Shown piece by piece: positions 7,377 to 26,382 of a stretch of DNA of 64,000 nucleotides. The notes under the pieces are model-generated. The model was given only the letters and a program-made list of their open reading frames with translations. It was not told the DNA's origin and did not search any database. Position numbers and translations under genes: made by a program. The first letter of the stretch is position 1. Every line of letters starts with the position of its first letter. This stretch comes from Anaerolineae bacterium (GTDB lineage: Bacteria > Chloroflexota > Anaerolineae > B4-G1 > DUEL01), in NCBI GenBank assembly GCA_016931695.1, contig JAFGEI010000023.1, forward strand, positions 5,328 through 69,327. The letters are read 5' to 3'.

Positions 7377-7399
7377 TTTCGCTCCACAGGAGAAACAGC

Positions 7400-9115: not shown

Positions 9116-9151
9116 CTATTCTGCACGCAGAAAGCCGGGGAAAAGCAGTCG

Positions 9152-9179
9152 GCCGGGGCGAGAAACGGCTCGCCCCGGC
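9152..9179. terminator. GC-rich hairpin between convergent genes (possible bidirectional terminator)
   Basis: gccggggcgag-aaacgg-ctcgccccggc, an 11-bp perfect stem, sits between the kinase 3' end (9115) and the 3' end of the minus-strand aldolase-Fae gene (9215). There is no U-tract. Confidence 0.45.
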
Positions 9180-9214
9180 CGAACCCTGTGGGGGCGTGGC
9201 ATGCCGTGCCCTCG

Positions 9215-10687: not shown

Positions 10688-10695
10688 GTCGCCTC

Positions 10696-12130: not shown

Positions 12131-13714
12131 TTACAAGAAATTTTCAGCCATTTGTGTGCTAAAGATATTGTTCTGTTCTTGCAGCGCGCCGAGCCAGGCC
12201 CGGTCGAACTCGCCGCGGCGCAGTTGGGCGTAAATGGCTTCCATGTTCTCGACGTGCCCCCGCACCCGCTCCTCGGCGTACTGGCGGCTGCTTTCCCGCC
12301 ACATCATGAAGGCAAAGTCGCTGCTCTGGGCCAGCAAAAGCTCGCGCAGGTACTGCTGCCGGGCCAGGCGCAGCGCTTCTTCCGCGATGCCTGCCGCGGC
12401 GTCGAATTCGTCCAGCCGCTCGATCGCCCGGTAAAGCCGGGGATAGAGCCAGTGGTTGCGCCCCATCAGCCAGCTTTCGCTATAGCCCTGGTAGCCCCAA
12501 CTGGACAGCGACGGCGTCACCTCCTGGTTGACCGGATACTGGCGCAAATAGTCCGAAGCGGTGACCAGCTCGACCGTTTGCTGGTCATAGACCAGCTTGC
12601 GAAGCACCAACTCCAGCCAGGTCGGGCCTTCCCGCCACCAGTGGCCAAAGTGCTCGGTGTCGAACATGGCGACCAGGACCGGCTTGCGTCCCATCCAGGC
12701 CTGCAGCGCCTGCACCCGCTCCTGGCACCAGTGGAAAAAGTGCTGCGCGTGCGCGTCGCAGCGGCGAAAGGCCGCGTCGGGGTCGTACGCGCCGCCGCCC
12801 GCCCGCTTGCCGCGGTGATACTTGATCCCCGTGCCGGCCGGGCGGTCGATGTGGGTGAAAGGCGCGACCTGCTCCAGCTCCAGTTCGTAGCCAATGTCCC
12901 GGTCGCCGTCGAGGTAGCACGGATCGCCCGGATAGCCCTTGTCTTCCAGCCAGACCAGGTCGTGGATGCCCCAGTCGCGGCCAAAGGCGACCACTCCGTG
13001 GGGAGAATGGACCGGGGCGTGGACGCCGAACCGGGGCCGGGGGTGGCCGTTGAGAATGCCATTGGCGTTGAGAAAGGTGTAGCGAATTCCTTCCTCCTGC
13101 AGCAGCTCGTCGATGCCCGGAGAACGGCCACAGCAGGGAGCAAACCCGCACTCGGGAAGCCAAAAGCCCTGCGGCCGTTCGCCAAAGACGGCCTGGTGCT
13201 GCTGCAGGCCGAGCTGTATCTGGAGCCTGGCGGCGCGGGGGTAGAGCGTCCACAGGGGCAGATAGGCGTGGGTCGCCGCCGAGGTCAGCAGTTCGACGCA
13301 GCCCGCATCGCGCAGGAAGGCAAAGGCGGCCGTCAGGTCGTGATTCCAGTGTGCAAAGACGCGGCGGCAGCGCACAAAGTGCTGGTGGTACATCTGCGCC
13401 AGGCGCAAGAAATCGGGCCTGCCGCCCAGTCGCGCCATCTCCCGCTCCGCCAGCCGGACGCGGTCCTCCAGGTAGCCCAGGTAGCGCTGCTGCAGCAGCG
13501 GGTCGGCCAGTTGGGCCACCAGGCAAGGGGTGAGGGAGATGGTGATTCGGAAGCGGGCGCCGTCGCGGACCAGCCCGCTCAGGGCCTCGATCAGCGGGAT
13601 ATAGCTCTCTGTGATCGCCTCGAACAGCCAGTTCTCTTCCTCGGAGTGCGGCTGTGCGGCGTTGCGCACGAAAGGCATGTGCGTGTTCAAGACGAACAGC
13701 AGGCAGCCTTTCAC
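12131..13714 (-). CDS. glycoside hydrolase family 57 protein, alpha-glucan branching-enzyme-like
   Basis: Start set at the GTG at 13714, overlapping the upstream TAG by 1 nt (VKGCLLFVLNTHMPFVRN…). This is the GH57 HxH(L/M)P(Y/F)V N-terminal motif; an ATG alternative lies at 13678. The catalytic region is …WLPECGF…, …FDTEHFGHWW…. The size of about 528 aa fits GH57 branching enzymes. Confidence 0.75.
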   Translation of the reverse strand: MKGCLLFVLNTHMPFVRNAAQPHSEEENWLFEAITESYIPLIEALSGLVRDGARFRITISLTPCLVAQLADPLLQQRYLGYLEDRVRLAEREMARLGGRPDFLRLAQMYHQHFVRCRRVFAHWNHDLTAAFAFLRDAGCVELLTSAATHAYLPLWTLYPRAARLQIQLGLQQHQAVFGERPQGFWLPECGFAPCCGRSPGIDELLQEEGIRYTFLNANGILNGHPRPRFGVHAPVHSPHGVVAFGRDWGIHDLVWLEDKGYPGDPCYLDGDRDIGYELELEQVAPFTHIDRPAGTGIKYHRGKRAGGGAYDPDAAFRRCDAHAQHFFHWCQERVQALQAWMGRKPVLVAMFDTEHFGHWWREGPTWLELVLRKLVYDQQTVELVTASDYLRQYPVNQEVTPSLSSWGYQGYSESWLMGRNHWLYPRLYRAIERLDEFDAAAGIAEEALRLARQQYLRELLLAQSSDFAFMMWRESSRQYAEERVRGHVENMEAIYAQLRRGEFDRAWLGALQEQNNIFSTQMAENFL

Positions 13715-14103
13715 TAGGTCAGTGTGGTCCACGATTCCTCGTTGCTTGCGGATGGGCCGTCGCGCGGCAGGCAGATGGTGTTCGAGGTCACGGCGGGGTG
13801 AAAGCGCCCGGCCGCCGTCTTGAAACCAGCCTGCGCGCAATAGTTGCGATCCGCGGCCCAGATTTCCAGGTACCAATGATCGATCTCGGGGGAGATGTCG
13901 ACGTCAAAGTGAAAGTGGGAGTTGGTGTCGTCGAACAAGATGTCGGTCACGTCGTGGATGCGCAGCGTCCACTGCGCCTGCAGCGGGTCGAATCCTCCCT
14001 CGAGGCCGACCCGTTCGACGGTCTCTGGGCTGACGTGCCACCAGATAAAGGTCCAGTGGGGGTCCTTGGGCAGGAAATAGGCGCGGTCGGGATACTCATT
14101 CAT
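13714..14103 (-). CDS. DUF4912-like domain protein (GH57-associated)
   Basis: 130-137 aa. Start is either ATG at 14103 or TTG at 14127 (…NEYPDRAYFLPKDPHWTFIWWHVSPETVERVGLEG…). Family assignment is from memory of the conserved W-rich pattern that accompanies GH57 genes. Confidence 0.55.
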   Translation of the reverse strand: MNEYPDRAYFLPKDPHWTFIWWHVSPETVERVGLEGGFDPLQAQWTLRIHDVTDILFDDTNSHFHFDVDISPEIDHWYLEIWAADRNYCAQAGFKTAAGRFHPAVTSNTICLPRDGPSASNEESWTTLT

Positions 14104-15370
14104 CGGCTGGGCGCTGCGGTTCGTCAAACAGGCTGCTTTTCTTGATAATCTGGTAATAGGCGATCAGGGAGAGCGCGATGCGGGCGGTGTGCCACTGCTG
14201 CCAGTTGCCGTCCTGCACGTCGCCCTCCTGGCGGGTTTGTGTCTTGAGTAGCCATTGGGCGTTGGCCGAAAGGAGGGGCAGGGGGGCGTCGGGCATCTTG
14301 ACCAGCGTTTCCAGGGTGAGACAGGTGTTCTCGTAATGCCCCCAGCCCCAGCCCTCGATGTTGCCCTCGGCATCAAAGATGGGCCGCTCCTCGCCGCGCA
14401 GCCACTCGACCGCCCGGTTGATGCGCCCACCCAGTGGCCGGAGGTCGATCTCAAAGGCCTGGCCGACCAGCATGCCCTGCAGGGCGTCGCAGGTCTTGTT
14501 GAGCGCTGGGCTGCCGCTCAGGCCCTCCTGTCCGGGGTGGCAACTGCCGCTGTTCCAACTGCCGTCCGCGTTCTGGGTGGCGGTGAGCCAGCGAATGGCC
14601 CGCTCCACGATGGCGCGGTAATCCGCCTGGCGGACCTCGCCCAGCGCCTGCAGCGCCGCGCTCGTCGCGCCGACCTCGCTGTAGCAGCGGGTCGGCGTCG
14701 TCACGTCGAACCCCCATACCTGGGCATCCCACCCGCCGTCCTCGTTCTGGGCCTGGACCAGCCGCTCGATGCTGTACGAAACGGTGGGGGGGATCGCTTC
14801 CAGGCGTGGCTGGCCGGCCTGGTAAAAGCAGCGCACGGCGAGCGAGATTTCATAGACCGGCATCCCGCTGCCGGGATTGATGTACTCGACCGCCCACATC
14901 TCGGGGTGGGAGCCGATCCAGCTCAACCCCCGCTGCAACATGCCTGCGACGTCGACGTCATAGGCCAGGTTCTCCAGCTCCTGGGCGGCGTTCAGGCAGA
15001 GCACGGCGTAAGCGGTGCCCCAAAAGTTGCTCACGTCGAACTGGAATCCCCAACCGCCGTCGCTGTGCTGGCTGCGGCTTAGCCGGCGCACGGCGCGGAC
15101 GATGGCGTCCTCGGTCTGCTGCACCTTCCGGTGGAGGTTCATGTCCTGGCCCACCTGCGAGGTGATGTGCTGCACCTGCTCCTTGCTGCCGGCTATCAAC
15201 TCGCCGGCGTGGCTCATCATGCGCTCGGTGACCTGGCCGATCCGGGCAAAGCAGTCGATAAGCTTTTGGTACTTTTGCTCGTTGGTGAGATTGCTTTCCA
15301 GGATGCCCATCAAATAGCCCCGCACCTCTGGGTCCTGGAGAATCTCCAGGGGATTTTCGAGTGTGCTCAT
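14096..15370 (-). CDS. prenyltransferase/squalene-oxidase-repeat protein (alpha/alpha-toroid, terpenoid-cyclase/protein-prenyltransferase-like)
   Basis: Start at ATG 15370 (MSTLENPLEIL…) after the RBS aagggag. The upstream 66 codons of the track ORF are Arg/Ser-rich junk. QW-type repeats QNEDGGW and QNADGSW plus multiple W/G-rich helix pairs. 424 aa. Confidence 0.65.
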   Translation of the reverse strand: MSTLENPLEILQDPEVRGYLMGILESNLTNEQKYQKLIDCFARIGQVTERMMSHAGELIAGSKEQVQHITSQVGQDMNLHRKVQQTEDAIVRAVRRLSRSQHSDGGWGFQFDVSNFWGTAYAVLCLNAAQELENLAYDVDVAGMLQRGLSWIGSHPEMWAVEYINPGSGMPVYEISLAVRCFYQAGQPRLEAIPPTVSYSIERLVQAQNEDGGWDAQVWGFDVTTPTRCYSEVGATSAALQALGEVRQADYRAIVERAIRWLTATQNADGSWNSGSCHPGQEGLSGSPALNKTCDALQGMLVGQAFEIDLRPLGGRINRAVEWLRGEERPIFDAEGNIEGWGWGHYENTCLTLETLVKMPDAPLPLLSANAQWLLKTQTRQEGDVQDGNWQQWHTARIALSLIAYYQIIKKSSLFDEPQRPADE

Positions 15371-15371
15371 C

Positions 15372-16028
15372 TCACCACGCTCCCTTTTCGCCGGCGATCG
15401 CCATCCGCCGCGCTTCGCGGGCGACCTCCTTGACGTAGCAGGCCGTCCTGAGCGCTCCCAGCAGGTCCTGCGGCCTGCGGCAGACGCTGGCCTCAAAACC
15501 GTAGCAGTTGCGGATGACGTCGATGATGCTCTCGCCATCCAGGGTGGCAAAGTTTTTGAGCGCCACAAAGACGATCATGGGCAAGAGCGGCCGGTCCCCA
15601 CCCACGTACTTGATCCAATCGTGCGGCGGGTGGCTCAGGTCCAGCACCACCAGGTACGCCTCTTCGAAGCGCATGGTCCGCTCGAACGTCTCGTCGGGCA
15701 CGACGAACCAGGCGTCAATCTCTCGTTCGTCCAGCGCGCTGGCCACGTAGTACATCTTGCGCGGGGGTTTCCGCGCCGGGGGGGCTGCTTCGTCCCACGG
15801 GGCCTGGGGCTGCTGCTGTTTGCCGATCTGCACCAGGTCGTCGATGCGGCCCACGCGGTCCAGGTAGCCGATCAGCTCCCGCACCTTGCCTTCCGTCCCT
15901 TCCCCACCCAGGGTGTCGTACTCCACGCCGAGGTGGAAAAAGAGCGTCTTTAAGCTCTCTTTTGTGGGAAAGTGACGGGTGAGAATCTGAAACAGTCTGC
16001 TCCGGTAATCCTGCTGCGCTTCCGCCAT
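15372..16028 (-). CDS. hypothetical protein with N-terminal effector-associated-domain (EAD)/death-like motif
   Basis: Start at ATG 16028 (MAEAQQDYRSRLFQILTRHF…), with a possible alternative GTG at 16070 inside the GDE gene. The motif …SLKTLFFHLGVEYDTLGGEGTEGKVRELIGYLDRVGRIDDLVQIG…QP follows the L-x-L-C/F-F-x-LG-x-Y-x-L-x-G-x-K-x-RELI-x-Y-x-R-x-GR-L-x-L pattern. The C-terminal 130 aa is an unrecognised alpha/beta region. Confidence 0.5.
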   Translation of the reverse strand: MAEAQQDYRSRLFQILTRHFPTKESLKTLFFHLGVEYDTLGGEGTEGKVRELIGYLDRVGRIDDLVQIGKQQQPQAPWDEAAPPARKPPRKMYYVASALDEREIDAWFVVPDETFERTMRFEEAYLVVLDLSHPPHDWIKYVGGDRPLLPMIVFVALKNFATLDGESIIDVIRNCYGFEASVCRRPQDLLGALRTACYVKEVAREARRMAIAGEKGAW

Positions 16029-16029
16029 C

Positions 16030-18420
16030 TCAACTTGCTCCCTTTCCGAAAACCTCCACCAGCGGGTCACACCACTGAGACCAAAACTGGATCGGTTCTT
16101 TCACCGGCACCGGGTTGTCGTGCGTCTGCTGGTCCGGGTACGGGTTGCTGCCCCGAGGCCGGGCCAGCAGTTCGTGGTTGTAAAAGATCGCCCCCTCGGT
16201 CATCTGGTGGTCCAGGGTATTGATCAATATCTGTTCGACGAGTTCGTCCTCGCCCAGCATTTGCAGCAGCTTGATCAGGTAGGGCGTGGAGCGCAGCCAG
16301 ACGACGTCGGCGTGATACTGGTGATCGCCATAGTATATCTGTGGGGAGACGCCGCGGGCGACGATGCCAAAGGGCCACCTGCCAATGCCGTATTTGACCA
16401 GCCGGCGATGGACCAGCAATTCCTGCCTGATCCGCTCCCAGATGGCGGACAGCTCTGCCGGGGCAAAGATCATCTCGCCCAACATTGCCGCCGCTACCAC
16501 GGCCGGCTCGGTCGGCAGCGGGTCCCGCACGCTCCGCTCGCGATAGACCACGTTGTACAAAAAGCCCCGCTCCGGATCCCAAAACACGGCCTTAAAGTGC
16601 GCCGTGGCGCGGGCGAGCAGGTCGGCGACCCGCTCCCTGAACGCGGCAATTTCCGGCCCGGCCTGCGCCGGCAGCGGCTCCCGGCTCAGCGCCAGGCGGA
16701 TCGTTTCCAACATCCCCTGCAGCATGACGATCCACTGGGCGTTGATCTCGGGCAAAAAGAACTCGGGCGCGGAGAGATGTTCTTTCAATGCCCTGTCGTC
16801 TGCCAGCCGCTCGTACAGGGCATGGATGAAGGATTCGGACACCCGGTTGGGCAGGTTTTCGATGAGCCGCCCCTCGCAGAACACGGACTGGGTTTGGGTA
16901 TCGATCCACGAATGTCGCGGGACGCTCAACAGCAGGCCGGTCGGGGCGTCTACTTGCGGCGGCCCGTCTTTCTTGTAAAGCGGATGAGCCAGCGCATCCT
17001 GGCGGCAAAACCGTTCGACCATCTTGATCGCATAGGGCAAGAGGTCCCAGGCAAAGTCCACGTCACCTGTCCGCTGGACGTAGGCGTTGGCGGCGATAAA
17101 GCACAACAAGGTGGCGTCAGAGGTATTATAGTCCTCGTTGTCTTCCTTGTTAAACTGGGGCAGCCGGTTCAGGATGCGCCCCGAAGCCTCGTCTTGCATG
17201 CAGAGGGCGAGCAGGATAATGTTCTTGATGTTCTCCCGCTCCTCCGGGATGCGCATCAGCGTGTCCATGCTGTTCAGGATGCCCTCGAACACGTCGCGGT
17301 ACCAGGGGTTCTTGAACCACCAGGCGCCCGCATAGGGGACCTGGACGTAAAAGATGGGCGGCTGGGCCAGGTGGATGTAGAGCTTGAACTTGGTCAGGCC
17401 TGCGATGCGGCCCAGGATTGCATCCTGGAACGGGATGCCGGGCCGCAGTGGAAAGAGTTGCTGGAGGCGCTGGTACAGCCGCCAGTCCTCCCCCCGCGAC
17501 TGTTGCAGCTGCTCTTCCAGCACGGGGAACGAGGGAAAGGCCGCTTTTTTTTCTTCCTCGTGCAGGTTGCAGCAGAAAAAGAGCCGCGCCCAGCGGGATG
17601 CAAAAGAGGGCGGGATTCGAACTTGAAAGAAGGCAGCGATGTCGTGGTGCTCCTCCTCGAACACGGTTTTGCCATCGGGGGATTCCTCCCTCTCGCCGGT
17701 GCCCAACTTGTAATGCCACTCCAGTTGTTGCGGCTTGGCAAAACGATCCAGTTCTACCGGTGGTAGGCGGAACGTGATCGACCGCTGCCCGTGGCGAAAT
17801 TGGATGTTTCGATAGCTCGCGGAATCGTTCACCTGGATTTCATAATCGAAGCGGGAGGGGTCGTACATGTGGCGGATGTCGAGGAACGGCTGGAGGACAG
17901 GGGTGATGGCGGTGCCGTGATGGACCAGCCCGTGGGGAAAATAGAGTTCGACGCAGCCGGTGATGCACAACGGCTGGTTTCGCGAGTGCAGGTAGTAGGA
18001 AACGTAGAACGGGATCTCCGCGCCCTCCCTCCCACCCAGGGCGGCGGCGGCGATCTTGTATTCGTAGGTCACGCGCCAGGGATTGAGCCGCACCGCCAGG
18101 CGGGTGCGATCGGTGACGAACGGCAGGTACTTGCCGGCCGGGTCCTGCAGGCCGAGCGCGACGCAGTCGATGAATTTCCAATTCTCGCCGCCCTGGTAGA
18201 CCAGCAGCCCCTCGTAGGGATAGTCGCGGTTGGGAGCGATCAGCCGCTTGTCGTCTATCTCGATGATGCTGGAATAGATGGACTGAACCCACTCGGCGGA
18301 AGGGGCCATCAGCGCGCAGCGCCGGTTGCGGGCAAATCCCCAGTCGGGGTTCTCGAGCGGGGTCAGCGAGATGAAACTGCCGATCGGGTCTTCTGCCAGG
18401 GGGGTGTCCGCGTAGCGCAT
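16030..18420 (-). CDS. glycogen debranching enzyme family protein (amylo-alpha-1,6-glucosidase-type C-terminal alpha/alpha toroid with GDE N-terminal domain)
   Basis: 796 aa. …FYNHELLARP…, …WFKNPWYRDVFEGI…, …LDHQMTEGAI… are typical of the bacterial/archaeal GDE_N plus GDE_C architecture. Confidence 0.8.
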   Translation of the reverse strand: MRYADTPLAEDPIGSFISLTPLENPDWGFARNRRCALMAPSAEWVQSIYSSIIEIDDKRLIAPNRDYPYEGLLVYQGGENWKFIDCVALGLQDPAGKYLPFVTDRTRLAVRLNPWRVTYEYKIAAAALGGREGAEIPFYVSYYLHSRNQPLCITGCVELYFPHGLVHHGTAITPVLQPFLDIRHMYDPSRFDYEIQVNDSASYRNIQFRHGQRSITFRLPPVELDRFAKPQQLEWHYKLGTGEREESPDGKTVFEEEHHDIAAFFQVRIPPSFASRWARLFFCCNLHEEEKKAAFPSFPVLEEQLQQSRGEDWRLYQRLQQLFPLRPGIPFQDAILGRIAGLTKFKLYIHLAQPPIFYVQVPYAGAWWFKNPWYRDVFEGILNSMDTLMRIPEERENIKNIILLALCMQDEASGRILNRLPQFNKEDNEDYNTSDATLLCFIAANAYVQRTGDVDFAWDLLPYAIKMVERFCRQDALAHPLYKKDGPPQVDAPTGLLLSVPRHSWIDTQTQSVFCEGRLIENLPNRVSESFIHALYERLADDRALKEHLSAPEFFLPEINAQWIVMLQGMLETIRLALSREPLPAQAGPEIAAFRERVADLLARATAHFKAVFWDPERGFLYNVVYRERSVRDPLPTEPAVVAAAMLGEMIFAPAELSAIWERIRQELLVHRRLVKYGIGRWPFGIVARGVSPQIYYGDHQYHADVVWLRSTPYLIKLLQMLGEDELVEQILINTLDHQMTEGAIFYNHELLARPRGSNPYPDQQTHDNPVPVKEPIQFWSQWCDPLVEVFGKGAS

Positions 18421-18431
18421 GGGCTGTCACC

Positions 18432-19880: not shown

Positions 19881-21262
19881 AATTCGGCCTTTTTGAGAAT
19901 CTCGTCCAGGATATCGGCGCCGGTGCGGTTGCTCTGCCCATTGATCGCCACGCGCAGGTCGCGGTATAGACCGGGGGTCAGGTCCTCGCCGGTGGCGTAG
20001 CACGTGAGGGCGATGGCGCGGACCCCGTTGGCGATGCCATAGCGCGGCTCATACCGTTCCAGGCGCTCGAAGAAAAAGGTACAGCTGGCATACATCCGTT
20101 GCCGATAGAACTGGGCTTCCAGCAGCCACAACATTCGCTGTGCTCCCTCGGCACCAAGTTTACTCAGGCCGTGCCGGGCCAGCAGTTCCGGGCCCTCGAT
20201 CTCTCCCATCACCACGGCAATGTACTCGTCCCGCAGCGCCCAGGGTTCCAGGCCCATCTTGAGCGCCTCGCGTTCGTAGGCCGCGTCCAGGTTGCAGGCC
20301 AGGTTATCCAGCGCGCGCCGCAGGGCGCCTTTCCAGCGGCTGTCGCCCTCGGTACACTCGCATCCCACCACCCAGCGGGCCAGCCCGTGCGGGCAGCTCC
20401 AGGACGAGTTCTGCACGATCTCGATCTCTGTTTTCGGAGGGTGGTCGCGCAGGTAGCGGCCCAAGGTCGTGATGGTGTAGCCGTGTTGTTCGCCGATTTC
20501 CAGGATGCGCTGCAGCACCGCGGCCCCCTGTGGGCGGTGGTGGCCAAAAGTCTCGCCGTCGGTGGCCGCGAGCAGCAGCCCGTCGCGCTGGCAGCGCCAC
20601 CTGACGTGGTCCCAAATCCATCCGTCCACGTTGCCCGGGTCCGGCATGTCGAAGGAGAGGGTGTTGGAGAGGTGGCGATCGCGCACAAAGACCGCGATTT
20701 TCTCTTCTTCGCCGCGGATGCGCACCCAATAGGGGCCGGCGCCGTTCTCCATGCTTCCCCGCACCTGTTCGTCGGAGAGGATGGTAAAGCGGATACCTTC
20801 TGAAACCAGGACCTGCAGCGTCGCCTCGTCGACCGCCATCTCTGGCAGCCACATCCCCTCGGGGCGGTGGCCGAAGCGATGGGTAAAGCTGGCGATGCCC
20901 CAGCGGACCTGGCAGACCTTGTCCCGCCGCCGCGCCAGGGGGAGGATCGTGTGGTGGACCGGCTGAGCCAGTCCGTTGCTGACGCCGTGGGCGGCATAGT
21001 GGGCCCGTTCGCCGGCGACGATCCGCTCGTACGTGGCAGGGGCGTGCTCGTCCAGCCAACGGGCCAGCGTTCCCCCCAGGTTAAAGCTGATCCGTTCGAA
21101 ACTGCCGGCTTCGGCCAGGGGAGTATAGCTCTCGGCGGCGATGCGCTCGTTCCAGTTGGCGTACGGGGCGGCGTCCGGCTCGCGGGAGATGTGATTGGTG
21201 AACGGGTCCGCTCGCGGCGGCTGGTAAAAATGGCCGTGGACACAGAAATAGCAATCAGACAT
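19877..21262 (-). CDS. glycoside hydrolase family 57 protein (alpha-amylase/4-alpha-glucanotransferase-like)
   Basis: Start at ATG 21262 after aaagga (MSDCYFCVHGHFYQPPRADPF…). Conserved GH57 region …GMWLPEMAVDE…, …ATDGETFGHH…. 461 aa. Confidence 0.75.
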   Translation of the reverse strand: MSDCYFCVHGHFYQPPRADPFTNHISREPDAAPYANWNERIAAESYTPLAEAGSFERISFNLGGTLARWLDEHAPATYERIVAGERAHYAAHGVSNGLAQPVHHTILPLARRRDKVCQVRWGIASFTHRFGHRPEGMWLPEMAVDEATLQVLVSEGIRFTILSDEQVRGSMENGAGPYWVRIRGEEEKIAVFVRDRHLSNTLSFDMPDPGNVDGWIWDHVRWRCQRDGLLLAATDGETFGHHRPQGAAVLQRILEIGEQHGYTITTLGRYLRDHPPKTEIEIVQNSSWSCPHGLARWVVGCECTEGDSRWKGALRRALDNLACNLDAAYEREALKMGLEPWALRDEYIAVVMGEIEGPELLARHGLSKLGAEGAQRMLWLLEAQFYRQRMYASCTFFFERLERYEPRYGIANGVRAIALTCYATGEDLTPGLYRDLRVAINGQSNRTGADILDEILKKAEL

Positions 21263-21269
21263 CGGCTCG

Positions 21270-22190
21270 TCAGTCTGTCCTTTGCGAGATTTGCCAGCCC
21301 CAATTGCTGGCGGCGGCAACCAGGCTGGTGTAGACCAGGCCCGGCAGGATCGAGATGAGCAGGGTGAGGATGAAGGGATCGGTCTCCATTCCCGCTCGCG
21401 CGCTGAGAAAAACGAACAGCGCAAAGGCACCCCCTGCCCAACCGCCCAGGCCGACGATGGCGCCCATCTTTTGCGCCTCTTTGCTGCTCAAAGTGCGCCC
21501 GCCTTTTTTGGCCTCGTGCCCGACCATCCAGCCCGCGAGCAGGCCCAAGGGAAATCCGGCCAGAACGCCCACACAACAGATCGCGCCCAACCCGGTGACG
21601 ATGGCGTTGACGACCGCCAGGATCAGCCCGAGCTGCATGGTAGATGCAGCCATGCTGGCCGGGACAGGGCTGGGACGGGATGGCGCTGGCCTGGGCGGTT
21701 GGGGAGCGGGCCGGCTGGGCTGGGGTGTGGGGCGGGTGCGCACCGCTGGGGGCGGCGGGTACAGCTTGGCTAGCGAGGACTGGGCCAGGCGGACGATTTC
21801 TTCGTCGTCGGCGACGTCGCGCGCCTGCTCAAACTCCCACCGGGCCTGATCGATCGATCCCTGCCTCAGGGCGTAGTCGCCGCGGGCAATGTGAGACTGG
21901 GCGAGCTCGTCGTCCGCTGAAGGCTCGCCGGGCGGCGGCTCCGGCAAGGACGGCGCGAGGGGTTCCGCCGGGGGAGCGACCGGCGCTTCTTGCGGCGCGA
22001 ACGGTTCCACCATCAGGGTGGGCATCTCGATCGACGCTGGTTCTGGCCAGTCGAACAGGTCGTCCAGCTTGGGGATTTCTACCTCGGGCGGTTTCGGCCA
22101 CTCGAACTGGTCGCTGCCCAGGGCAAAGCCGCACTGCTGGCATGTCGTGGCCTGCGGGTCGTTTTCCGTGTTGCAGATGGGACATTTCAT
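21270..22190 (-). CDS. zinc-ribbon domain membrane protein (N-terminal C4 zinc ribbon, TPR-like segment, Pro-rich linker, C-terminal polytopic TM domain)
   Basis: Start at ATG 22190 (MKCPICNTENDPQATTCQQCGF…). Pro-rich PPPPAVRTRPTPQPSRPAPQPPRPAPSRPSP. C-terminal glycine-zipper TM segments. Confidence 0.55.
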   Translation of the reverse strand: MKCPICNTENDPQATTCQQCGFALGSDQFEWPKPPEVEIPKLDDLFDWPEPASIEMPTLMVEPFAPQEAPVAPPAEPLAPSLPEPPPGEPSADDELAQSHIARGDYALRQGSIDQARWEFEQARDVADDEEIVRLAQSSLAKLYPPPPAVRTRPTPQPSRPAPQPPRPAPSRPSPVPASMAASTMQLGLILAVVNAIVTGLGAICCVGVLAGFPLGLLAGWMVGHEAKKGGRTLSSKEAQKMGAIVGLGGWAGGAFALFVFLSARAGMETDPFILTLLISILPGLVYTSLVAAASNWGWQISQRTD

Positions 22191-22195
22191 CGCCT

Positions 22196-24343
22196 TCACT
22201 CCGCGTACTGCCGGGCTGCGAGGCGCAGCGCCAGCGCCCACGTCCCGCCTGCCGGCAGGTCGAGTTGCCAGATCAACAGCGTGCACGTCCCCTGGTAGGA
22301 CCGCTCGTAGCCGGCTTCCGAATTTGTGACGGCTTCCAGGGGGAAATGCCACAGCGTGGCCGGGCGGTCGGCGTGCAACGAGACCTCGCCCGCCAGATCG
22401 GGCAGGGTCGAGCCGACGACCAGCTGCGAGACCCCGTCGCGCTGGCCTGCAGCGGCCAGGCCGAGGCGCTCACCGTCGACGCGCAGGACGCCGTACTCGC
22501 TGTTGCCGCCGACGATGCCCCAGTTCCACTCGACGCCCAGGCGGAGGGAGAGGGGTTCGGCGCCCGCGTTTGTGACCTGGTAGTCGATGGTCAGCTCGTC
22601 GCTGCCGGCGGCGGCGGACAACCGTTTCTCTAGCCGTACCGGCCCGGCGGCCCCAACGCGGCCCACGCGGAACAGGGTCAGGCTGGCGCCCGGCTCCTGC
22701 TCGTCGATGCGCACTCCATACGGCTGGGCGAGAAAATCGCCGCGCTCCGCGCCACCGCCGTGGGAAAAGGACTCGCAGGTTGTGCCGGGGTGGAGAAAGT
22801 GGTCCAGCAGCGCCAGGCGGCGGTACGAATCGTGCGCGATATAGTCCGCGACGTCGCGTTCCTTGACCCGGATTGCAGCTGGCGGGGCTTTTTCGCCCGG
22901 CAGGACCAACCGCCCCTCGGCTGTCGCAGCGAGCAGTTCGTCGTGGTACCCCTCGCGGCGGCGGGTCATGCTGTTCAGCAGGTTGTAGCGCTGCCAGCGC
23001 CAGTCCCATTCCACCAGCGCCCCGCCGTAGCCTGGCTTGCAGACTAGCAGGTGCCGGTCCGTGTTCACCACCACCTCGGCCTGTCCATCACCGTCCACGT
23101 CATACTGCTCGACCTCGGCCCAGGGAGCGGCGCCGAAGCGGGCCTGGTCGGCCAGGTGCTCGGCGGCGATGAGGTGCGCATAGTTGGCGACGCGGATGTG
23201 AAAGAGATAGATGCCGCCAAAAAGGCCGTGCCAGTAGCCGCAGTTGCACTGGGACGACCAGAGGTGATCCAGCGCCCGCGTTTTTTTCTCTCCCTCGGCC
23301 ATCGCGTGTACCTTGCGGCTGACCCAGAGCATCTTTTTGTGCATCTGGTTCACCTCGTCGTAGCGGGCGATGAAGGAGCGCCAGTGCCCACCCTTGACAA
23401 AGCGCAGCACGTCCTGCCGTCCCTGCTCTGCCAACTGCTGCCGGATCCGCTGCAGCGCGGCAAAGTCGTCTGGCGGCAGCGCCCACTGCATCATCTCCTC
23501 GTAGGACGCGCAGGGCAAATAGACGCGGCCGAGCGGCGGCTGGCCGGCGGCAATCTCTCCCAGCGGGCGCGTGTCGAGCCAGTCGCTGTTGGCCTCCAGG
23601 GCGGTAAAGAACCGCTCGACCCACGCCTCTCGCTCCCAGCAGAGGTCCCACGTCCCGGGCCAGAGGCCGAACTTTTCGCCGTCGTCCCCCATCACGGCGA
23701 CCCTGGCCTGCCCGGCGCTGTTTTCGGGCGCCGCGTCTGCCTGGGTGCGCAGCCAGTCGATCACCTCTTCCACCGGGTGCCAGGGGATGGCGTAGCGCAG
23801 GTACATCGAGTTGCCAAATACCTGCAGCGCGTGGCCCTGCTCCTCGGTTACGTAGGCGCCAAAGAGATCGTCGTCGGTGAGACCGACCATCTTGAAATGG
23901 GTGTCGTCGAGCAGGGTGTAGCGGATGCCGGCCTCGGACAGAGACTTGGGGAGGTGGGGCTCCCAGACCCGCTCGGCCAACCACGCGCCTGTTGGCCGGC
24001 GTCCAAAGCGCTGCTGCAGAAAACGGTTCGTCTTGTGCAGCTGGCCGGCCTTGTCGGCGTCGGGGATCGCGGTCAGGATCGGCTCATAGTAGGCGCCGCC
24101 GAGCATCTCGACCTGGCCGCGGTCGACCAGGGCGGTCAGGCGCTGCAAGTGGTCGGGCTGGTGGGCGGACAGCCAGTCCAGCAGCGGGCCAGTATAGTGA
24201 AAGGCCATGCGGATGCGCGGGTGGCGCTCCAACGCTGCCAGCAGCGGGCTGTAGGCCTGTTGGACTGCCAGGGCAAAGACGTGGCCGAAATTGCCCACAG
24301 GCTGGTGGTTGTGGATGACCAGGGATAACGTGATCCGGCCCAT
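22196..24343 (-). CDS. large glycoside hydrolase family 57 protein (4-alpha-glucanotransferase/amylopullulanase-like, with C-terminal accessory domains)
   Basis: Start at ATG 24343, overlapping the glgA stop (TGATG) (MGRITLSLVIHNHQPVGNF…). GH57 motifs …WLAERVWEP…, …GDDGEKFGLWPG…. 715 aa. Confidence 0.75.
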   Translation of the reverse strand: MGRITLSLVIHNHQPVGNFGHVFALAVQQAYSPLLAALERHPRIRMAFHYTGPLLDWLSAHQPDHLQRLTALVDRGQVEMLGGAYYEPILTAIPDADKAGQLHKTNRFLQQRFGRRPTGAWLAERVWEPHLPKSLSEAGIRYTLLDDTHFKMVGLTDDDLFGAYVTEEQGHALQVFGNSMYLRYAIPWHPVEEVIDWLRTQADAAPENSAGQARVAVMGDDGEKFGLWPGTWDLCWEREAWVERFFTALEANSDWLDTRPLGEIAAGQPPLGRVYLPCASYEEMMQWALPPDDFAALQRIRQQLAEQGRQDVLRFVKGGHWRSFIARYDEVNQMHKKMLWVSRKVHAMAEGEKKTRALDHLWSSQCNCGYWHGLFGGIYLFHIRVANYAHLIAAEHLADQARFGAAPWAEVEQYDVDGDGQAEVVVNTDRHLLVCKPGYGGALVEWDWRWQRYNLLNSMTRRREGYHDELLAATAEGRLVLPGEKAPPAAIRVKERDVADYIAHDSYRRLALLDHFLHPGTTCESFSHGGGAERGDFLAQPYGVRIDEQEPGASLTLFRVGRVGAAGPVRLEKRLSAAAGSDELTIDYQVTNAGAEPLSLRLGVEWNWGIVGGNSEYGVLRVDGERLGLAAAGQRDGVSQLVVGSTLPDLAGEVSLHADRPATLWHFPLEAVTNSEAGYERSYQGTCTLLIWQLDLPAGGTWALALRLAARQYAE

Positions 24344-25800
24344 CAGCTTTGCGCGTGGCGTTCGATGGCCTGGCGGTAGAGCTGGAGGTACTTTTTCGCC
24401 GCAGCGCTCCAGCAAAAGTCGCCCTTCATGCCCCGCATCTGGAGCGCTTCCCACGCCGCCCGGTCGCGAAAGACCCGCATCGCTCGCCGGACTGCCTCCA
24501 GGCCGGTCTCGGGGCCAAAGGGCGAAAAAGAGAAGCCGGTGGCCTTGTCCGGCCGCTCGTGGTAGTCGATCACCGTATCGGCCAGGCCGCCGGTCTTGTG
24601 TACTACCGGCACCGCGCCATAGCGCATGGCGATCATCTGCCCGCGCCCGCACGGCTCGAAGCGGGAGGGCATCAGGTAGATGTCGCATCCGGCATAGATG
24701 CGGTGGGCCAGGACGTCGTCGTGCCGGAAAAGGCAGCGCACCTTGTTGGGGAAACGGCGTTGCAGCCCCTCCAACATCTCCTGGTATTCCGGCTGGCCGG
24801 TGCCCAGCAGCACCAATTGAACGTCGCCGGCCAGCAGCGGCTCCATCATCGCCGGCAAGATGTCGACTCCCTTGACGTGCTCCAGCCGGGTCACGAGGCC
24901 GAGCAGCGGTACGTCAGGGCGGACCGGCAGGTGCGCAGCCTGTTGCAGCGCGGCCTTATTCACCGCCCGCATCTTGGTGCTGGAGCGGTCAAAGTGGTGC
25001 GAGATGTGGGGATCGGTCGCCGGGTCCCACACCTGGCAGTCGATGCCGTTGGGCACGCCGGAGAGCCGATCCTGGCGCTGGCGGAGCAGGGGCGCCAGGT
25101 CGCCGCCCGCTGCTGTTTGTAGGATATCTTGGGCATATTGCTGGCTGACCGTGTTGACCAGGTCCGCGTTGGCGATTCCCTGCGCCATCCAGTTGACTTG
25201 TCCGGGCGGTTCCACCTCCAGGTGCTTGACGTACTCCATTTGGGCAAAGGTCAGCAGCAGCCGGCCAGAGATGCCCTGGTAGGCGAGGTTATGGATGGTA
25301 AAGAGACAGGCCAGGTGGCGGTATTGGCGGAGATAGCGGCCCTCGTAGGCCAGCCAGGTTGGAAGGACGGCGGTATGCCAGTCGTTGGCGTGGATGACGT
25401 CGGGCATCCACTCCAGCATCTCCAGCGAAGCGATCACCGCGCGGCCAAAGAAGGCGAATCGCTGCGGGTCGTCGTCAAAGCCATAGACCCGCTCGCGCGG
25501 GGAAAAGAATTTTTCGTCCCACACCAGATAGACGGGGACGCCGTCGCCCGTCGTGGTGTGGACGAGGTGGGCCCGCTCGTGTCCTGGGCCGACCGGCACG
25601 GAGAAGGGCCTGGCAAACTTTTTGAACTGGAATTCCTCGGAGCGAATGGAACCATAGCGCGGGATCATCAGGCGAACGTCGTGGCCCATGGCGTGGAGCA
25701 CGTTGGGCAGTGCGCCGGCGACGTCCGCCAATCCTCCGACCCGGGCGAATGGAACCGCTTCTGCGGCGAGAAACAATACTTTTAGCCGTTTGTCGCTCAT
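24343..25800 (-). CDS. glgA: glycogen synthase (ADP-glucose-type, GT5)
   Basis: Start at ATG 25800 (MSDKRLKVLFLAAEAVPFARVGGLADVAGALP…). Classical GlgA N-terminus and C-terminal GT-B domain (…GLVTRLEHVKGVDIL…, …MPSRFEPCG…). Confidence 0.85.
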   Translation of the reverse strand: MSDKRLKVLFLAAEAVPFARVGGLADVAGALPNVLHAMGHDVRLMIPRYGSIRSEEFQFKKFARPFSVPVGPGHERAHLVHTTTGDGVPVYLVWDEKFFSPRERVYGFDDDPQRFAFFGRAVIASLEMLEWMPDVIHANDWHTAVLPTWLAYEGRYLRQYRHLACLFTIHNLAYQGISGRLLLTFAQMEYVKHLEVEPPGQVNWMAQGIANADLVNTVSQQYAQDILQTAAGGDLAPLLRQRQDRLSGVPNGIDCQVWDPATDPHISHHFDRSSTKMRAVNKAALQQAAHLPVRPDVPLLGLVTRLEHVKGVDILPAMMEPLLAGDVQLVLLGTGQPEYQEMLEGLQRRFPNKVRCLFRHDDVLAHRIYAGCDIYLMPSRFEPCGRGQMIAMRYGAVPVVHKTGGLADTVIDYHERPDKATGFSFSPFGPETGLEAVRRAMRVFRDRAAWEALQMRGMKGDFCWSAAAKKYLQLYRQAIERHAQS

Positions 25801-26030
25801 GTCCTGCCATTCCTCGAGATCCCGGCCCGTTGCCCGTGTTCTATCCAACCGCCCTCTCCCGGCGCGGTGCGCGAAAGCGGCGTAAAAGTCGGCGAGGGTG
25901 TCGGCGTGGCGCTGGGTGAGCGGCGGGAAGATGGGATGAAAGAAATGAACACTCCCACCACCATGCTGACGACAACGAGCAGGCTAATGATCCAAAAGAT
26001 GCGCTGGGCACTCGATTTTTTACGTGTCAC
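25797..26030 (-). CDS. possible small membrane protein (77 aa) translationally coupled to glgA
   Basis: GTG start preceded by AGGAGA at 4 nt (MTRKKSSAQRIFWIISLLVVVSMVVGVFISFIPS…), with an N-in TM helix. Its TGA stop overlaps the glgA ATG (ATGA). The 5' half is AT-richer than the flanks. The Pro/Thr-rich tail could be a GC-frame artefact. Confidence 0.4.
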   Translation of the reverse strand: MTRKKSSAQRIFWIISLLVVVSMVVGVFISFIPSSRRSPSATPTPSPTFTPLSRTAPGEGGWIEHGQRAGISRNGRT

Positions 26031-26382
26031 AATTTCTCCTTGTGCCGCTCATTTCTCTCGGCGCGGGTTGTGGGATTGGCACCATTGCCACTTCCGGTTC
26101 CAAAGGTGCCGGTTTCGGGCCTGGAATTCGCTTTCAGCCGTGGAATTCCGTGGCGGGAATGACGCCGCCCCCAAAACACCAGGCTCCAGGTCGTATTATA
26201 GCACAGAGGGCGGCAACGACAACCAAAAAGGAAGGAGGTGTTCGAGGCAAATCCCGCCCAGTGGGCGAGAACGGCGAGGTAAAAACTGCTTTGGCTTCGA
26301 AATCCCATCGCCCCTGTCACTTGCGTGGGGAGCAAGGTGGGATAGAATGGGCCAACCGACGCATTTCTTGCAGGAGGCTGTT

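Follow-up and report, generated by a model that had tools for sequence, protein, structure and literature searches.

A minus-strand array of 13 genes (16.8 kb, one strand throughout), found in a 64,000-nucleotide window of an uncultured Anaerolineae MAG, probably encodes a cytoplasmic, archaeal-style glycogen pathway of the GH57/GH133 type, modular and polycistronic, whose product would be an unmodified branched alpha-glucan. The initial annotation described ten co-directional genes in a 17-kb stretch between positions 26030 and 12131, separated by 8 nt or less or overlapping. The tight, co-directional and operon-like layout on the minus strand was confirmed, but we count 11 genes in these 13.9 kb and the longer span fits only if two DHDPS-Fae genes are added, which lie beyond that range and are part of the same array. 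With the start codons chosen here, the junctions from the first to the last gene are -4, -1, +5, +7, -4, +11, +1, +1, -8, -19 (or -1), +10 and +8 nt, with at least five overlaps, the extremes being an overlap of 19 nt and a gap of 11 nt. The latter separates the methyltransferase and GDE genes, and therefore one gap within 12131-26030 exceeds 8 nt. The GC3 is 0.80-0.89 in all genes except the short lead ORF (0.67). A run of 13 genes on one strand with gaps of no more than 11 nt and even GC3 goes far beyond what chance would give (0.5^12 for the strand alone). The starts of the GDE, EAD7, toroid, DUF4912 and branching-enzyme genes match the gene calls on an identical public contig, and all the domain labels given earlier were reproduced with Pfam and NCBIfam.

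A consensus scan identified a promoter-like site on the minus strand (26195..26222), composed of TTGTCG, a 16-nt spacer and a TG-extended TATAAT (10/12 matches plus the TG), some 165 nt ahead of the first gene; sites of this kind are no more numerous here than in shuffled sequences, and the one described is a prediction only. The 160-nt leader presented no special fold (z = 0.28) and no match in Rfam. An 11/12 promoter-like match is also found within the GDE gene (17153-17125), and transcription might also start inside the array, for instance at this position. At the other end, an intrinsic-terminator-like hairpin (9149..9182, minus strand), with a 14-bp stem of which 12 pairs are G-C and a T-rich tail, lies 33 nt past the last stop codon of the array. 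No other long hairpin rich in G+C was detected on the minus strand from 8.5 to 27 kb, and beyond this one lies a convergent plus-strand gene (7304-9115). Most likely the 13 genes are co-transcribed as a predicted polycistronic minus-strand message reaching from roughly 26.2 kb down to 9.15 kb.

Comparison with other loci suggests that the array is a mosaic built from two separable modules. Module A comprises a small transmembrane peptide, GlgA, a GH57 4-alpha-glucanotransferase, a GH57+DUF3536 protein and a DNA-type methyltransferase, genes that recur partly or wholly in related Chloroflexota contigs. In locus L058 they are followed by two unrelated genes and a DHDPS-Fae gene, with identities of 76% (glgA), 67% (4-alpha-glucanotransferase), 66% (GH57+DUF3536) and 69% (methyltransferase), and module B is absent. 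Module B, a self-contained cassette, consists of a GDE_C-like glycosidase, a small protein, an alpha/alpha-toroid protein, a DUF4912 protein and a GH57 branching enzyme. Apart from the window, eight distinct gene contexts contain it, in several phyla including Acidobacteriota, either alone (L005, L006, L049, L054, L064/65, L066-68) or together with GH57+DUF3536 (L052). In the window it is placed between the methyltransferase gene and the two DHDPS-Fae genes. Several genes had been regarded as non-carbohydrate passengers, whose absence from syntenic clusters in relatives would have spoken against the initial annotation. For most of them the comparison favours it: the EAD7/small protein, toroid and DUF4912 genes are kept with the GDE and branching-enzyme genes in a fixed order and always between them. 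The Zn-ribbon gene is not conserved.

The first gene of the array (25797..26030, minus strand, as are all those that follow) has a GTG start and an AAGGAG Shine-Dalgarno sequence and encodes a 77-aa protein with a basic N-terminus, a single transmembrane helix and a Pro/Thr-rich tail. It matched no Pfam family, and a similar 60-aa ORF heads the L058 glucan cluster (51% identity over 41 aa, E 1.8e-7). Its stop codon overlaps the ATG of glgA (ATGA; 24343..25800), which encodes a 485-aa GT5 glycogen/starch synthase of the ADP-glucose type (TIGR02095, 517 bits against a cut-off of 328; Glyco_transf_5, E 1.7e-68). The next gene (22196..24343), overlapping glgA by 1 nt (TGATG), encodes a 715-aa GH57 protein of the 4-alpha-glucanotransferase type with Glyco_hydro_57, AmyA-A_glucT_m and AmyA-gluTrfs_C domains. 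This protein matches the Thermococcus litoralis 4-alpha-glucanotransferase (PDB 1K1W, E 3e-119), and in the alignment Glu123 and Asp214 fall in WLAERV and GDDGEKFG, respectively. The gene at 21270..22190 encodes a 306-aa protein with a CxxC...CxxC arrangement, Pro-rich linkers and a multi-transmembrane C-terminal region, for which zinc-ribbon hits were sub-threshold only. In L058 the two flanking genes have no counterpart between them, L052 likewise lacks one, and this gene is a lineage-specific insertion. It is followed by the GH57+DUF3536 gene (19877..21262, 461 aa, assigned by Pfam), whose product is 66-70% identical to the orthologues in L055, L058 and L059 and has WLPEMA and TDGETFGH aligned with the catalytic Glu and Asp regions of the T. 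kodakarensis branching enzyme (3N8T). Characterised relatives have oligosaccharide-acting or 4-alpha-glucanotransferase activity (PMC4017763, PMC11206854). The catalytic Glu and Asp are kept in all three GH57 proteins of the array. Three GH57 genes are indeed present, as first reported, but to call them paralogs is loose: they belong to different subfamilies with weak mutual similarity, an estimate based on how the window proteins cross-match the GH57 proteins of relatives (24-31% identity over partial lengths).

In module B, the gene at 16030..18420 encodes a 796-aa GDE_C-like protein of the amylo-alpha-1,6-glucosidase superfamily (GH133-like). The match to PF06202 (33.5 bits against a cut-off of 21) covers residues 363-473 only, no PDB relative was obtained by sequence or profile search, and both the glycosidase assignment, which relies on this partial Pfam match, and the specificity are putative and unproven. 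The same family was detected in most of 117 homologues, some of them named amylo-alpha-1,6-glucosidase by NCBI. The following gene (15372..16028) encodes a 218-aa protein with an N-terminal EAD7 adaptor domain (PF19960, 44.6 bits against a cut-off of 32) and a conserved C-terminal domain of about 130 aa. This C-terminal domain alone is encoded at the same position by a 126-152-aa gene in L005, L006, L049 and L054, and genes of 143-145 aa are found there in L064-L066. It is possibly a pseudo-receiver (hhalign with receiver domains: probability 29.5%, E 5.7e-4).

The 424-aa toroid protein (14096..15370), predicted to be cytoplasmic, matches SQHop_cyclase_C (1.8e-12) and falls below the threshold for Prenyltrans. 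We considered a prenyltransferase or cyclase function and rejected it: only the QW-type repeats are shared with squalene-hopene cyclase (1GSZ), whereas the catalytic DVDD of the cyclase is replaced by SEVGAT. All module-B loci have an orthologue (37-43% identity) at this position. The toroid gene overlaps by 8 nt the gene for a 129-aa DUF4912 protein (13714..14103; PF16258, 8.4e-27), which has an FN3/Ig-like beta-sandwich fold (AF2 pLDDT 87; Foldseek FN3 matches with E ~1e-4 and TM ~0.5). DUF4912 directly precedes the GH57 branching enzyme in every module-B locus, the two are fused in a 670-aa ORF in L005 (Acidobacteriota), and a Glucodextran_B domain is additionally present in some DUF4912 proteins. 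The branching-enzyme-type gene (12131..13732, 533 aa; Glyco_hydro_57 and BE_C) starts at a GTG at 13732 or, alternatively, at 13714. Its product retains the catalytic motifs WLPECG and FDTEHFGHWW, scores 257-260 bits with the NCBIfam branching-enzyme models, far below the equivalog cut-offs, and matches 2B5D (T. maritima AmyC, 1e-102), 3N8T (5e-69) and 1UFA (2e-56). The entry 2B5D, the nearest solved relative, was deposited as an 'alpha-amylase'.

The methyltransferase gene (18432..19880), whose ATG overlaps the GH57+DUF3536 stop codon (ATGA), encodes a 482-aa two-domain protein. Residues 3-267 form a circularly permuted N6/N4 DNA-methyltransferase, identified with Pfam/NCBIfam and PADLOC, that carries FLGSGT followed by the amino-methyltransferase motif HPPY. 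It matches the REBASE-derived Type II DNA methylase model MTase_II PDLC03351 (E 1.7e-96), and the best PDB match, also in permuted order, is 2ZIE, a putative modification methylase of T. thermophilus. Residues ~270-482 form an uncharacterised domain with an invariant PD...DLK, which gave no hit in Pfam, PADLOC or the PDB; an AF2 model (pLDDT 89) had no significant Foldseek match. The gene lies downstream of GH57+DUF3536 on the same strand, adjacent or near, in six of seven contexts (window counted), while in L052, L055 and L059 unrelated or opposite-strand genes separate it from the glucan genes. Identity is 56-81% among the homologues listed and ~61-76% for the full-length ones, and conservation (61-81% identity) is higher than that of the glucan enzymes.

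The last two genes of the array are tandem paralogues, ~47% identical, each encoding a fusion of a DHDPS-family aldolase with a Fae-like domain. The first (10696..12120, 474 aa) follows a 10-nt gap and has an AAGGAGG Shine-Dalgarno sequence, and the second (9215..10687, 490 aa) follows a gap of 8 nt. In L058 an orthologue of the first (62% identity) is found three genes after that of the methyltransferase. A gene for an FGGY sugar kinase is divergent from the array.

Archaeal clusters that contain glgA or GT4 synthases, GH57 enzymes, GH133 and a GH57 branching enzyme have been described together with an indirect debranching scheme (PMC11046441), and the array of the window is similar in its enzyme set. 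Taking family membership as a guide, GlgA would extend alpha-1,4 chains from ADP-glucose, whose source is assumed since the window yielded no glgC, and the gene is taken to lie elsewhere. The GH57 branching enzyme would introduce alpha-1,6 branches, with DUF4912 as its accessory for binding the glucan or a partner; this accessory role is the step best supported by comparison, because an Acidobacteriota genome encodes both as a single polypeptide. Indirect debranching of the eukaryotic and archaeal kind could be carried out jointly by the GH57 4-alpha-glucanotransferase and the GDE_C-like enzyme, and GH57+DUF3536 may disproportionate or trim oligosaccharides. Synteny and fold are the sole basis for the roles given to the toroid, small and DUF4912 proteins, the first two of which would be structural or regulatory partners within module B. 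The DNA-modification-type methyltransferase, the Zn-ribbon membrane protein and the DHDPS-Fae genes would be co-transcribed outside glucan chemistry, and the product would be an ordinary branched alpha-glucan, neither methylated nor lipidated.

As the initial annotation stated, glgC (NTP_transferase), glgB (GH13) and glgP (GT35) are lacking in the cluster, and likewise in the 28 other window ORFs scanned, and the enzyme set is all-GH57. The lack of glgC, the FGGY sugar kinase beside the array and the fact that, of the five carbohydrate-active enzymes besides GlgA, four (4-alpha-glucanotransferase, GH57+DUF3536, GDE_C-like and AmyC-like branching enzyme) could degrade glucans would suit a catabolic operon rather than a storage pathway, one for cytoplasmic use of maltodextrin or alpha-glucan in which the transferases and glycosidases process imported oligosaccharides and glgA is incidental. 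We consider this rather unlikely, as the operon is led by a full-score ADP-glucose-type synthase, GH57 enzymes of the BE_C type are branching enzymes and the array contains no transporter or solute-binding gene. Moreover, glycogen operons normally co-cluster genes for synthesis and degradation (PMC11046441).

It is quite improbable that EAD7, the toroid, DUF4912 and possibly the methyltransferase-nuclease-like protein constitute a conflict or defence system lodged in a glucan locus rather than glucan accessories. Effector-associated domains, to which EAD7 belongs by name (PF19960), occur in conflict systems, the toroid protein is weakly similar to the alpha-macroglobulin TED domain, the methyltransferase with its PD-(D/E)xK-like domain resembles a restriction-modification fusion and a phage integrase adjoins module B in L064. 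However, PADLOC gave no match for EAD7, toroid or DUF4912, and EAD7 is limited to two Chloroflexota versions whereas the C-terminal domain is the conserved part. The fixed gene order between GDE and branching enzyme and the fusion in L005 also argue for a glucan accessory role. No second EAD7 partner was detected in the window by tblastn, nor a convincing STAND NTPase, the sole nSTAND3 hit being a sub-threshold P-loop in the kinase-like protein of 7304-9115.

The suggestion of a methylated or lipid-linked glucan resembling the mycobacterial MGLP, with glucose units methylated by the methyltransferase and a lipid link provided by the toroid (prenyltransferase-repeat) protein, had its basis in the joint presence of a GH57 branching-enzyme-like gene, a glucan synthase and a methyltransferase as in Rv3030-Rv3032 (PMC4555173), in the start-stop coupling of the methyltransferase to a GH57 gene, a neighbourhood kept in most relatives, and in its C-terminal domain of no recognised family (Pfam, PADLOC, PDB, Foldseek), but is hardly credible: Rv3030 is a sugar O-methyltransferase and Rv3032 a GT4 enzyme, whereas the array has an N6/N4 DNA-methylase homologue (Type II model, N6/N4 structures and HPPY), set apart from the glucan genes in three loci, and a GT5 GlgA, alpha-glucans offer no amino group to an amino-methyltransferase, the toroid lacks the cyclase DxDD and reaches no Prenyltrans threshold, and neither an acyltransferase in the cluster nor a GpgS-type glucosyl-3-phosphoglycerate synthase among the window ORFs scanned was found. 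Nevertheless, to label the methyltransferase a mere neighbour leaves its coupling, kept neighbourhood and high conservation partly unexplained.

The array would thus represent a kind of cluster already known, that of GH57/GH133 glycogen metabolism, joined here to a conserved and uncharacterised accessory cassette.

Thirteen consecutive minus-strand genes of the window, defined by ORF listing and start-codon inspection, form the array described here. It opens with a small transmembrane ORF (26030-25797, 77 aa), glgA (25800-24343, 485 aa), a large GH57 protein of the 4-alpha-glucanotransferase type (24343-22196, 715 aa), a Zn-ribbon/transmembrane protein (22190-21270, 306 aa), a GH57 protein with a DUF3536 domain (21262-19877, 461 aa) and a methyltransferase (19880-18432, 482 aa). 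These are followed by a GDE_C-like protein (18420-16030, 796 aa), an EAD7 protein (16028-15372, 218 aa), a toroid protein with SQHop_cyclase_C repeats (15370-14096, 424 aa), a DUF4912 protein (14103-13714, 129 aa), a GH57 protein of the branching-enzyme type (13732-12131, 533 aa) and two DHDPS-Fae fusions (12120-10696, 474 aa, and 10687-9215, 490 aa). The junctions, in array order, are -4, -1, +5, +7, -4, +11, +1, +1, -8, -19 (or -1), +10 and +8 nt. The initial annotation had described a ten-gene, 17-kb super-operon between 12131 and 26030. The co-directional run is there, and the operon-like organisation holds for all 13 same-strand genes, with gaps of at most 11 nt; the ORF listing, however, gives eleven genes in that range, which spans 13.9 kb, and about 17 kb is reached only when the two DHDPS-Fae genes, which lie outside it, are added. 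The observation was real, if slightly under-extended.

NCBI locus tag JW900_01815, on a 137-kb contig of an Anaerolineae MAG, encodes a protein identical to the 796-aa GDE_C-like one, and on a 7.4-kb Logan contig of identical sequence these genes are called with unchanged starts. Long plus-strand ORFs opposite the array show an antisense composition pattern. Consensus scans predict one TG-extended -10 promoter-like site (26222-26195), about 165 nt 5' of the first start codon, and one long G+C-rich terminator hairpin (9182-9149) directly 3' of the thirteenth gene, where it faces a convergent plus-strand gene. The remaining terminator-like matches are short stems, at a density no higher than in shuffled sequence. 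Within the coding sequence of the GDE_C-like protein, a sigma-70-like match on the minus strand (17153-17125; TTAACA, 17-nt spacer, TATAAT; 11/12) may be an internal promoter or a chance occurrence. A regulatory RNA in the 160-nt leader was considered and dropped, since the leader has no Rfam match and folds no better than its shuffles. With such short gaps, an upstream promoter-like site and one strong terminator, the array is compatible with a single long operon.

The synthase is a GlgA of the ADP-glucose type (family GT5), residues 23-493 of the long ORF scoring 517 bits, full-length, against the curated TIGR02095 cut-off of 328.45. Membership of GH57 was judged by a catalytic Glu and Asp in a (beta/alpha)7 domain, and all three GH57 proteins keep the motifs of the nucleophile Glu (CSR-3, WLxE) and of the acid/base Asp (CSR-4, DxExFG). 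The large one has the AmyA/4-alpha-glucanotransferase middle and C-terminal domains and aligns over 590 residues with the Thermococcus litoralis 4-alpha-glucanotransferase 1K1W (E 3e-119); its AWLAERV and GDDGEKFG segments align with the conserved catalytic pair Glu123 and Asp214. In the protein encoded at 12131-13732, PF03065 is joined to PF09210 (BE_C), and the motifs FWLPECG and FDTEHFGHWW are conserved and aligned to Thermotoga maritima AmyC (2B5D), with which the alignment runs end to end (E 1e-102). Similarity to the branching enzymes of T. kodakarensis (5e-69) and T. thermophilus (2e-56) is also full-length (3N8T, 5WU7, 1UFA). Catalytic domain, BE_C and full-length similarity together identify it as a predicted GH57 branching enzyme; since it falls far under the NCBIfam equivalog cut-offs (260 vs 920 bits), it belongs to a distinct subgroup. 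The GH57+DUF3536 protein has no close relative with a solved structure; in the alignment with 3N8T, MWLPEMA and TDGETFGH are its Glu and Asp motifs. Two proteins of this architecture have been characterised: Amo45, which cleaved only a maltotrioside substrate (PMC4017763), and PoGH57, which behaved as a 4-alpha-glucanotransferase (PMC11206854).

The GDE_C-like protein passes the PF06202 cut-off, yet the match covers only profile positions 19-119 of 367 (about 100), and TIGR01561 reaches 18.5 bits against a cut-off of 364. Of its 117 homologues, most are likewise assigned to PF06202, and the family alignment contains many invariant Asp and Glu residues, placed by sequence alignment only. Neither phmmer nor a 24-sequence profile found a PDB relative. 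Because Pfam coverage is partial and no relative has been solved, the amylo-alpha-1,6-glucosidase label of this protein is a putative one. Among the array genes and 28 other window ORFs there is no glgC and no GH13 or GT35 domain, so that the reported absence of GH13 glgB, glgC and glgP stands.

Like the classical glgBXCAP operon, the array is co-directional and contains, near its head, an ADP-glucose-type GlgA, but it has no glgC, GH13 GlgB, GH13 GlgX or GT35 GlgP and relies on GH57 and GDE_C-like proteins for branching and debranching. The eukaryotic glycogen debranching enzyme unites 4-alpha-glucanotransferase and GDE_C amylo-alpha-1,6-glucosidase domains in one protein. Both activities are plausibly present here, in the GH57 4-alpha-glucanotransferase and the GDE_C-like protein; unlike the eukaryotic pair they would reside on separate polypeptides encoded 3.8 kb apart, with a GH57 rather than a GH13 transferase, and with a GDE_C match that is partial and an activity that is putative. 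Archaeal clusters, for example in Picrophilus and Sulfolobus, combine glgA or a GT4 gene with a GH57 amylase/4-alpha-glucanotransferase, a GH133 amylo-alpha-1,6-glucosidase and a GH57 branching enzyme (PMC11046441, a 2024 review). Debranching of the archaeal type is indirect, by a transferase and an amylo-1,6-glucosidase, and a Sulfolobus GH133 mutant over-accumulates glycogen (PMC11046441). The array resembles these clusters in being cytoplasmic and clustered and in pairing a synthase and a GDE_C/GH133-type glucosidase with GH57 rather than GH13 enzymes, a combination that implies indirect debranching. It differs from them in being bacterial, with three GH57 subfamilies in one array, in holding four additional conserved, uncharacterised genes (the small/EAD7, toroid, DUF4912 and methyltransferase genes), and in being joined to DHDPS-Fae genes. 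By this comparison the enzyme set appears to be a bacterial counterpart of the archaeal arrangement. The locus is probably a GH57/GDE_C-type array for glycogen synthesis and turnover, and its product is best described as an ordinary branched alpha-glucan.

The methyltransferase gene (19880-18432) encodes a protein whose residues 3-267 match the PADLOC model MTase_II PDLC03351, a REBASE-derived Type II model (E 1.7e-96), and which aligns in circular permutation to the putative modification methylase 2ZIE (TTHA0409) of T. thermophilus, FLGSGT coming first and HPPY second. The FxGxG and PPY motifs and the profile match place it with the Type II N6A/N4C methyltransferases, and DNA methylation is its predicted activity. 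Its architecture is that of an amino-methyltransferase acting on nucleobase or amide nitrogens and not on sugar hydroxyls. It shares with the beta-class N6/N4 Type II methylases such as 2ZIE the FxGxG SAM-binding and xPPY catalytic motifs and the strong profile match, but it is circularly permuted, has the variant HPPY and is fused to an uncharacterised domain of 215 residues; its family, unlike these methylases, is unusually conserved and keeps synteny with a GH57 gene on related contigs of Chloroflexota. The C-terminal 215 residues match no known family. In Thermoflexales this domain is a separate adjacent gene, and Priestia megaterium has a stand-alone homologue with no methylase next to it. 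It has an invariant P-D ... D-L-K, where the PD-(D/E)xK criterion asks for PD...(D/E)xK on an alpha-beta-beta-beta-alpha-beta core, and its model (pLDDT 89) gave no significant structural match.

The methyltransferase family, at 61-81% identity in more than 100 clusters, those with a named source being Anaerolineae/Chloroflexota, shows far stronger conservation than the glucan enzymes next to it. In six of seven contexts, counting the window, its gene is found downstream of GH57+DUF3536 on the same strand. The pair is start-stop coupled in the window and in L063, a locus on another contig, while in other contexts giant PKD proteins, a transposase fragment or genes on the opposite strand come between the two. 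The placement is most simply explained by a local gene order that has been inherited. A more speculative reading is that the methyltransferase-PD-(D/E)xK-like protein is tied to glucan metabolism, by regulatory DNA methylation or through a non-DNA substrate, and is not a restriction-modification remnant. It was also observed that the position of the gene is kept despite large inserted genes (loci L052, L055-L059 and L063), which is unusual for a restriction-modification gene, and that L055-L057, besides the conserved methyltransferase, have at 3455-5403 another N6_N4 methyltransferase (331 aa), different from the first, which lies with a 318-aa ORF without family assignment immediately upstream of GH57+DUF3536.

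The initial annotation had likened the locus to that of mycobacterial methylglucose lipopolysaccharide (MGLP) and suggested a possibly methylated or lipid-linked glucan. The MGLP locus comprises the 6-O-methyltransferase Rv3030, the GH57 branching-enzyme-like Rv3031, the GT4 enzyme Rv3032 and the candidate acyltransferase Rv3034c, while the GpgS, GpgP and OctT genes lie outside it (PMC4555173). The likeness is a GH57 branching-enzyme-like gene near a glucan synthase and a SAM-dependent methyltransferase, and of these components only the Rv3031-type gene (12131-13732) is matched. The sugar O-methyltransferase (Rv3030/Rv3037c type) is not, the only methyltransferase of the array being of the DNA N6/N4 type, and neither is the GT4 synthase, in whose place stands the GT5 GlgA. 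None of the 13 array genes has an acyltransferase domain of the Rv3034c/OctT type, and no GpgS, GpgP or OctT was found among the window ORFs scanned. Since methyltransferase class, synthase family and acyltransferase are all unmatched, we do not class the locus as MGLP-like; the suggested chemistry was rejected on the PADLOC and PDB matches of the methyltransferase, together with a toroid protein that lacks DxDD.

To place the array among other genomes, the GDE_C-like family was used as anchor in 185,579 species genomes, followed by tblastn with the 13 window proteins and exact-protein look-ups. The order GDE_C-like protein, small protein, toroid, DUF4912 and GH57 branching enzyme, which we call module B, recurs in eight different gene contexts in addition to that of the window. 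They come from a Thermoflexales MAG (L004/L052), two MAGs of Acidobacteriota (L005 and L006), a Thermoanaerobaculia MAG (L049) and several metagenome contigs (L054, L064/65 and L066-68). The suggestion that the non-carbohydrate passengers belong to a conserved cluster is borne out by this order. Outside Chloroflexota an extra membrane protein of about 290 aa, with a weak CarboxypepD_reg match, is inserted between the toroid and DUF4912 genes. Not every member of the GDE_C-like family comes with module B: distant homologues in archaea and Desulfobacter (about 30-46% identity) stand alone. In the metagenome contig L064 module B (2237-8804) lies directly downstream of a phage-type integrase gene (407-1192), a neighbour that hints that the cassette can be mobile.

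The remaining part of the array has its own distribution. L058, an Anaerolineae-type contig, has in this order the small transmembrane ORF, a different GH57 branching enzyme (32% identity), glgA (76%), the 4-alpha-glucanotransferase (67%), GH57+DUF3536 (66%), a transposase fragment, the methyltransferase (69%), two unrelated genes and a DHDPS-Fae gene (62%). It is the backbone of the window without module B and without the Zn-ribbon gene. In L063 the order is glgA, a large GH13-like protein, GH57+DUF3536 and methyltransferase. This large protein, of about 1,160-1,190 aa with a weak GH13 alpha-amylase domain, is found at the glucan locus in L052 (3478-7044), L055 (1-3363) and L063 (5004-8477); in L063 its gene lies between glgA and GH57+DUF3536, the position held in the window by the GH57 4-alpha-glucanotransferase and Zn-ribbon genes. 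A recent horizontal acquisition of module B was considered and found no support, as there is no compositional break, GC3 being 0.80-0.89 across the 12 full-size array genes; despite this uniformity, the gene-content comparison with L058 reveals an indel at module B. As the backbone occurs in L058 without module B, and module B recurs elsewhere, the array is a mosaic, and the super-operon is a lineage-specific product in which a block conserved in Chloroflexota has been joined to a cassette that crosses phyla.

The most interesting content of the locus is this accessory cassette, conserved but undescribed, that surrounds the GH57 branching enzyme. The DUF4912 protein (14103-13714) is modelled as a seven-stranded beta-sandwich (pLDDT 87) with a generic likeness to FN3 domains (E about 1e-4, TM about 0.5). 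A word-indexed homologue search returned 7 proteins, and the breadth of the family was seen only by exhaustive profile search, which gave 3,650 representative clusters. Many DUF4912 proteins (in the set P0245-P0301) are giants of 800-1,600 aa in which an N-terminal PBP_like_2 solute-binding domain precedes 3-10 tandem DUF4912 copies, and others in this set are paired with a Glucodextran_B domain. In the literature consulted DUF4912 has only incidental mentions, such as a cyanobacterial "Rho-like" protein of unknown function. In the Acidobacteriota MAG locus L005 (14912-16924, plus strand), Pfam finds DUF4912, Glyco_hydro_57 and BE_C in a single 670-aa ORF, and this fusion is the strongest clue to the function of DUF4912.

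The toroid protein (15370-14096) has no signal peptide in its sequence and has QW-type repeat hairpins in common with squalene-hopene cyclase. Its CYSEVGATSA aligns where the cyclase has the general-acid motif YPDVDDTA, and its orthologues have SEVGAT or SDVGAT in the DVDD position. Its Prenyltrans Pfam score is 18.2 against a cut-off of 26.5. A class II terpene cyclase or prenyltransferase was discarded on the missing DxDD and this sub-threshold score, only the QW-type repeats being common. The EAD7 protein (16028-15372) carries EAD7 (PF19960; 44.6 bits, cut-off 32) and a C-terminal domain of about 130 aa. EAD7 is also present in the Thermoflexales orthologue; beyond Chloroflexota, conservation is limited to the C-terminal domain. 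The pattern of this domain, K-x-[FY]-[VL]-A-S ... [FIL]-[IV]-[VI]-x-D-L-x-x-P-P-x-D-W, resembles a receiver domain without the N-terminal acidic pair; with hhalign the small conserved protein had a weak match to four REC domains (29.5% probability), and it has no Pfam match even at E 10. No second EAD7 partner was found in the window by tblastn, and PADLOC recognised none of the EAD7, toroid and DUF4912 proteins.

From synteny, the one fusion and fold class we infer that these three passengers partner the branching and debranching enzymes in binding, scaffolding or regulation. A tentative extension, which we hold to be rather unlikely as it stands, is that module B is an undescribed, widely distributed glycogen-remodelling machine in which three or four uncharacterised proteins are complexed with these enzymes and control branch placement or granule architecture. 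Its members would be the GDE_C-like protein, the pseudo-receiver-like protein of about 130 aa, the non-catalytic toroid, optionally the CarboxypepD_reg membrane protein, DUF4912 and the GH57 branching enzyme. If true, this would provide a first functional context for the DUF4912 family, which has at least 3,650 sequence clusters, the cyanobacterial "Rho-like" proteins among them.

The glucan array is closed by two tandem paralogues (9215-12120, minus strand) in which a class I aldolase of the DHDPS family is fused to a formaldehyde-activating-enzyme (Fae)-like domain. Both score just under the dapA equivalog cut-off, and the same fusion occurs downstream of the methyltransferase in L058. To our knowledge no function has been described for it. 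Elsewhere in the window, a low-GC island on the plus strand (54100-55360; 43-54% GC, with about 65-70% around it) looks recently acquired. It holds a 417-aa ORF with an N-terminal zinc ribbon that starts MKCPIC, like the Zn-ribbon protein of the cluster, a transmembrane segment, an extended Pro/Thr-rich region and a C-terminus that is rich in Cys and reminiscent of an Excalibur-type motif. A Tad/Flp-type pilus assembly block (33050-39066, minus strand) consists of two T2SSF proteins (TadB/C-like), a T2SSE ATPase, a receiver-ParA protein (CpaE-like) and an RcpC/CpaB-like protein. Several large polytopic membrane proteins of the glycosyltransferase-C type (PMT-like and two YfhO-like), together with an LPG_synthase_TM protein, are encoded on the plus strand at 537-5972 and 51791-54034, and these flanking genes point to a locus for glycosylation of the cell envelope that has no connection with the glucan array.

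Little is known of GH57-based bacterial glycogen metabolism next to the GH13 glgBXCAP paradigm. Sediments and wastewater systems, in which glycogen storage has a bearing on process ecology, are rich in Chloroflexota. The array suggests that these bacteria can build a whole pathway (synthase, branching and indirect debranching) from GH57 and GDE_C-type parts, and the tempting analogy to the mycobacterial methylated lipopolysaccharides is removed. The more useful outcome is the comparative one, a cassette of five to six genes kept in fixed order across phyla and including the fusion of DUF4912 to a branching enzyme, which offers partners for three families without a function: DUF4912, the motif-less squalene-cyclase-like toroid and the small pseudo-receiver-like protein.
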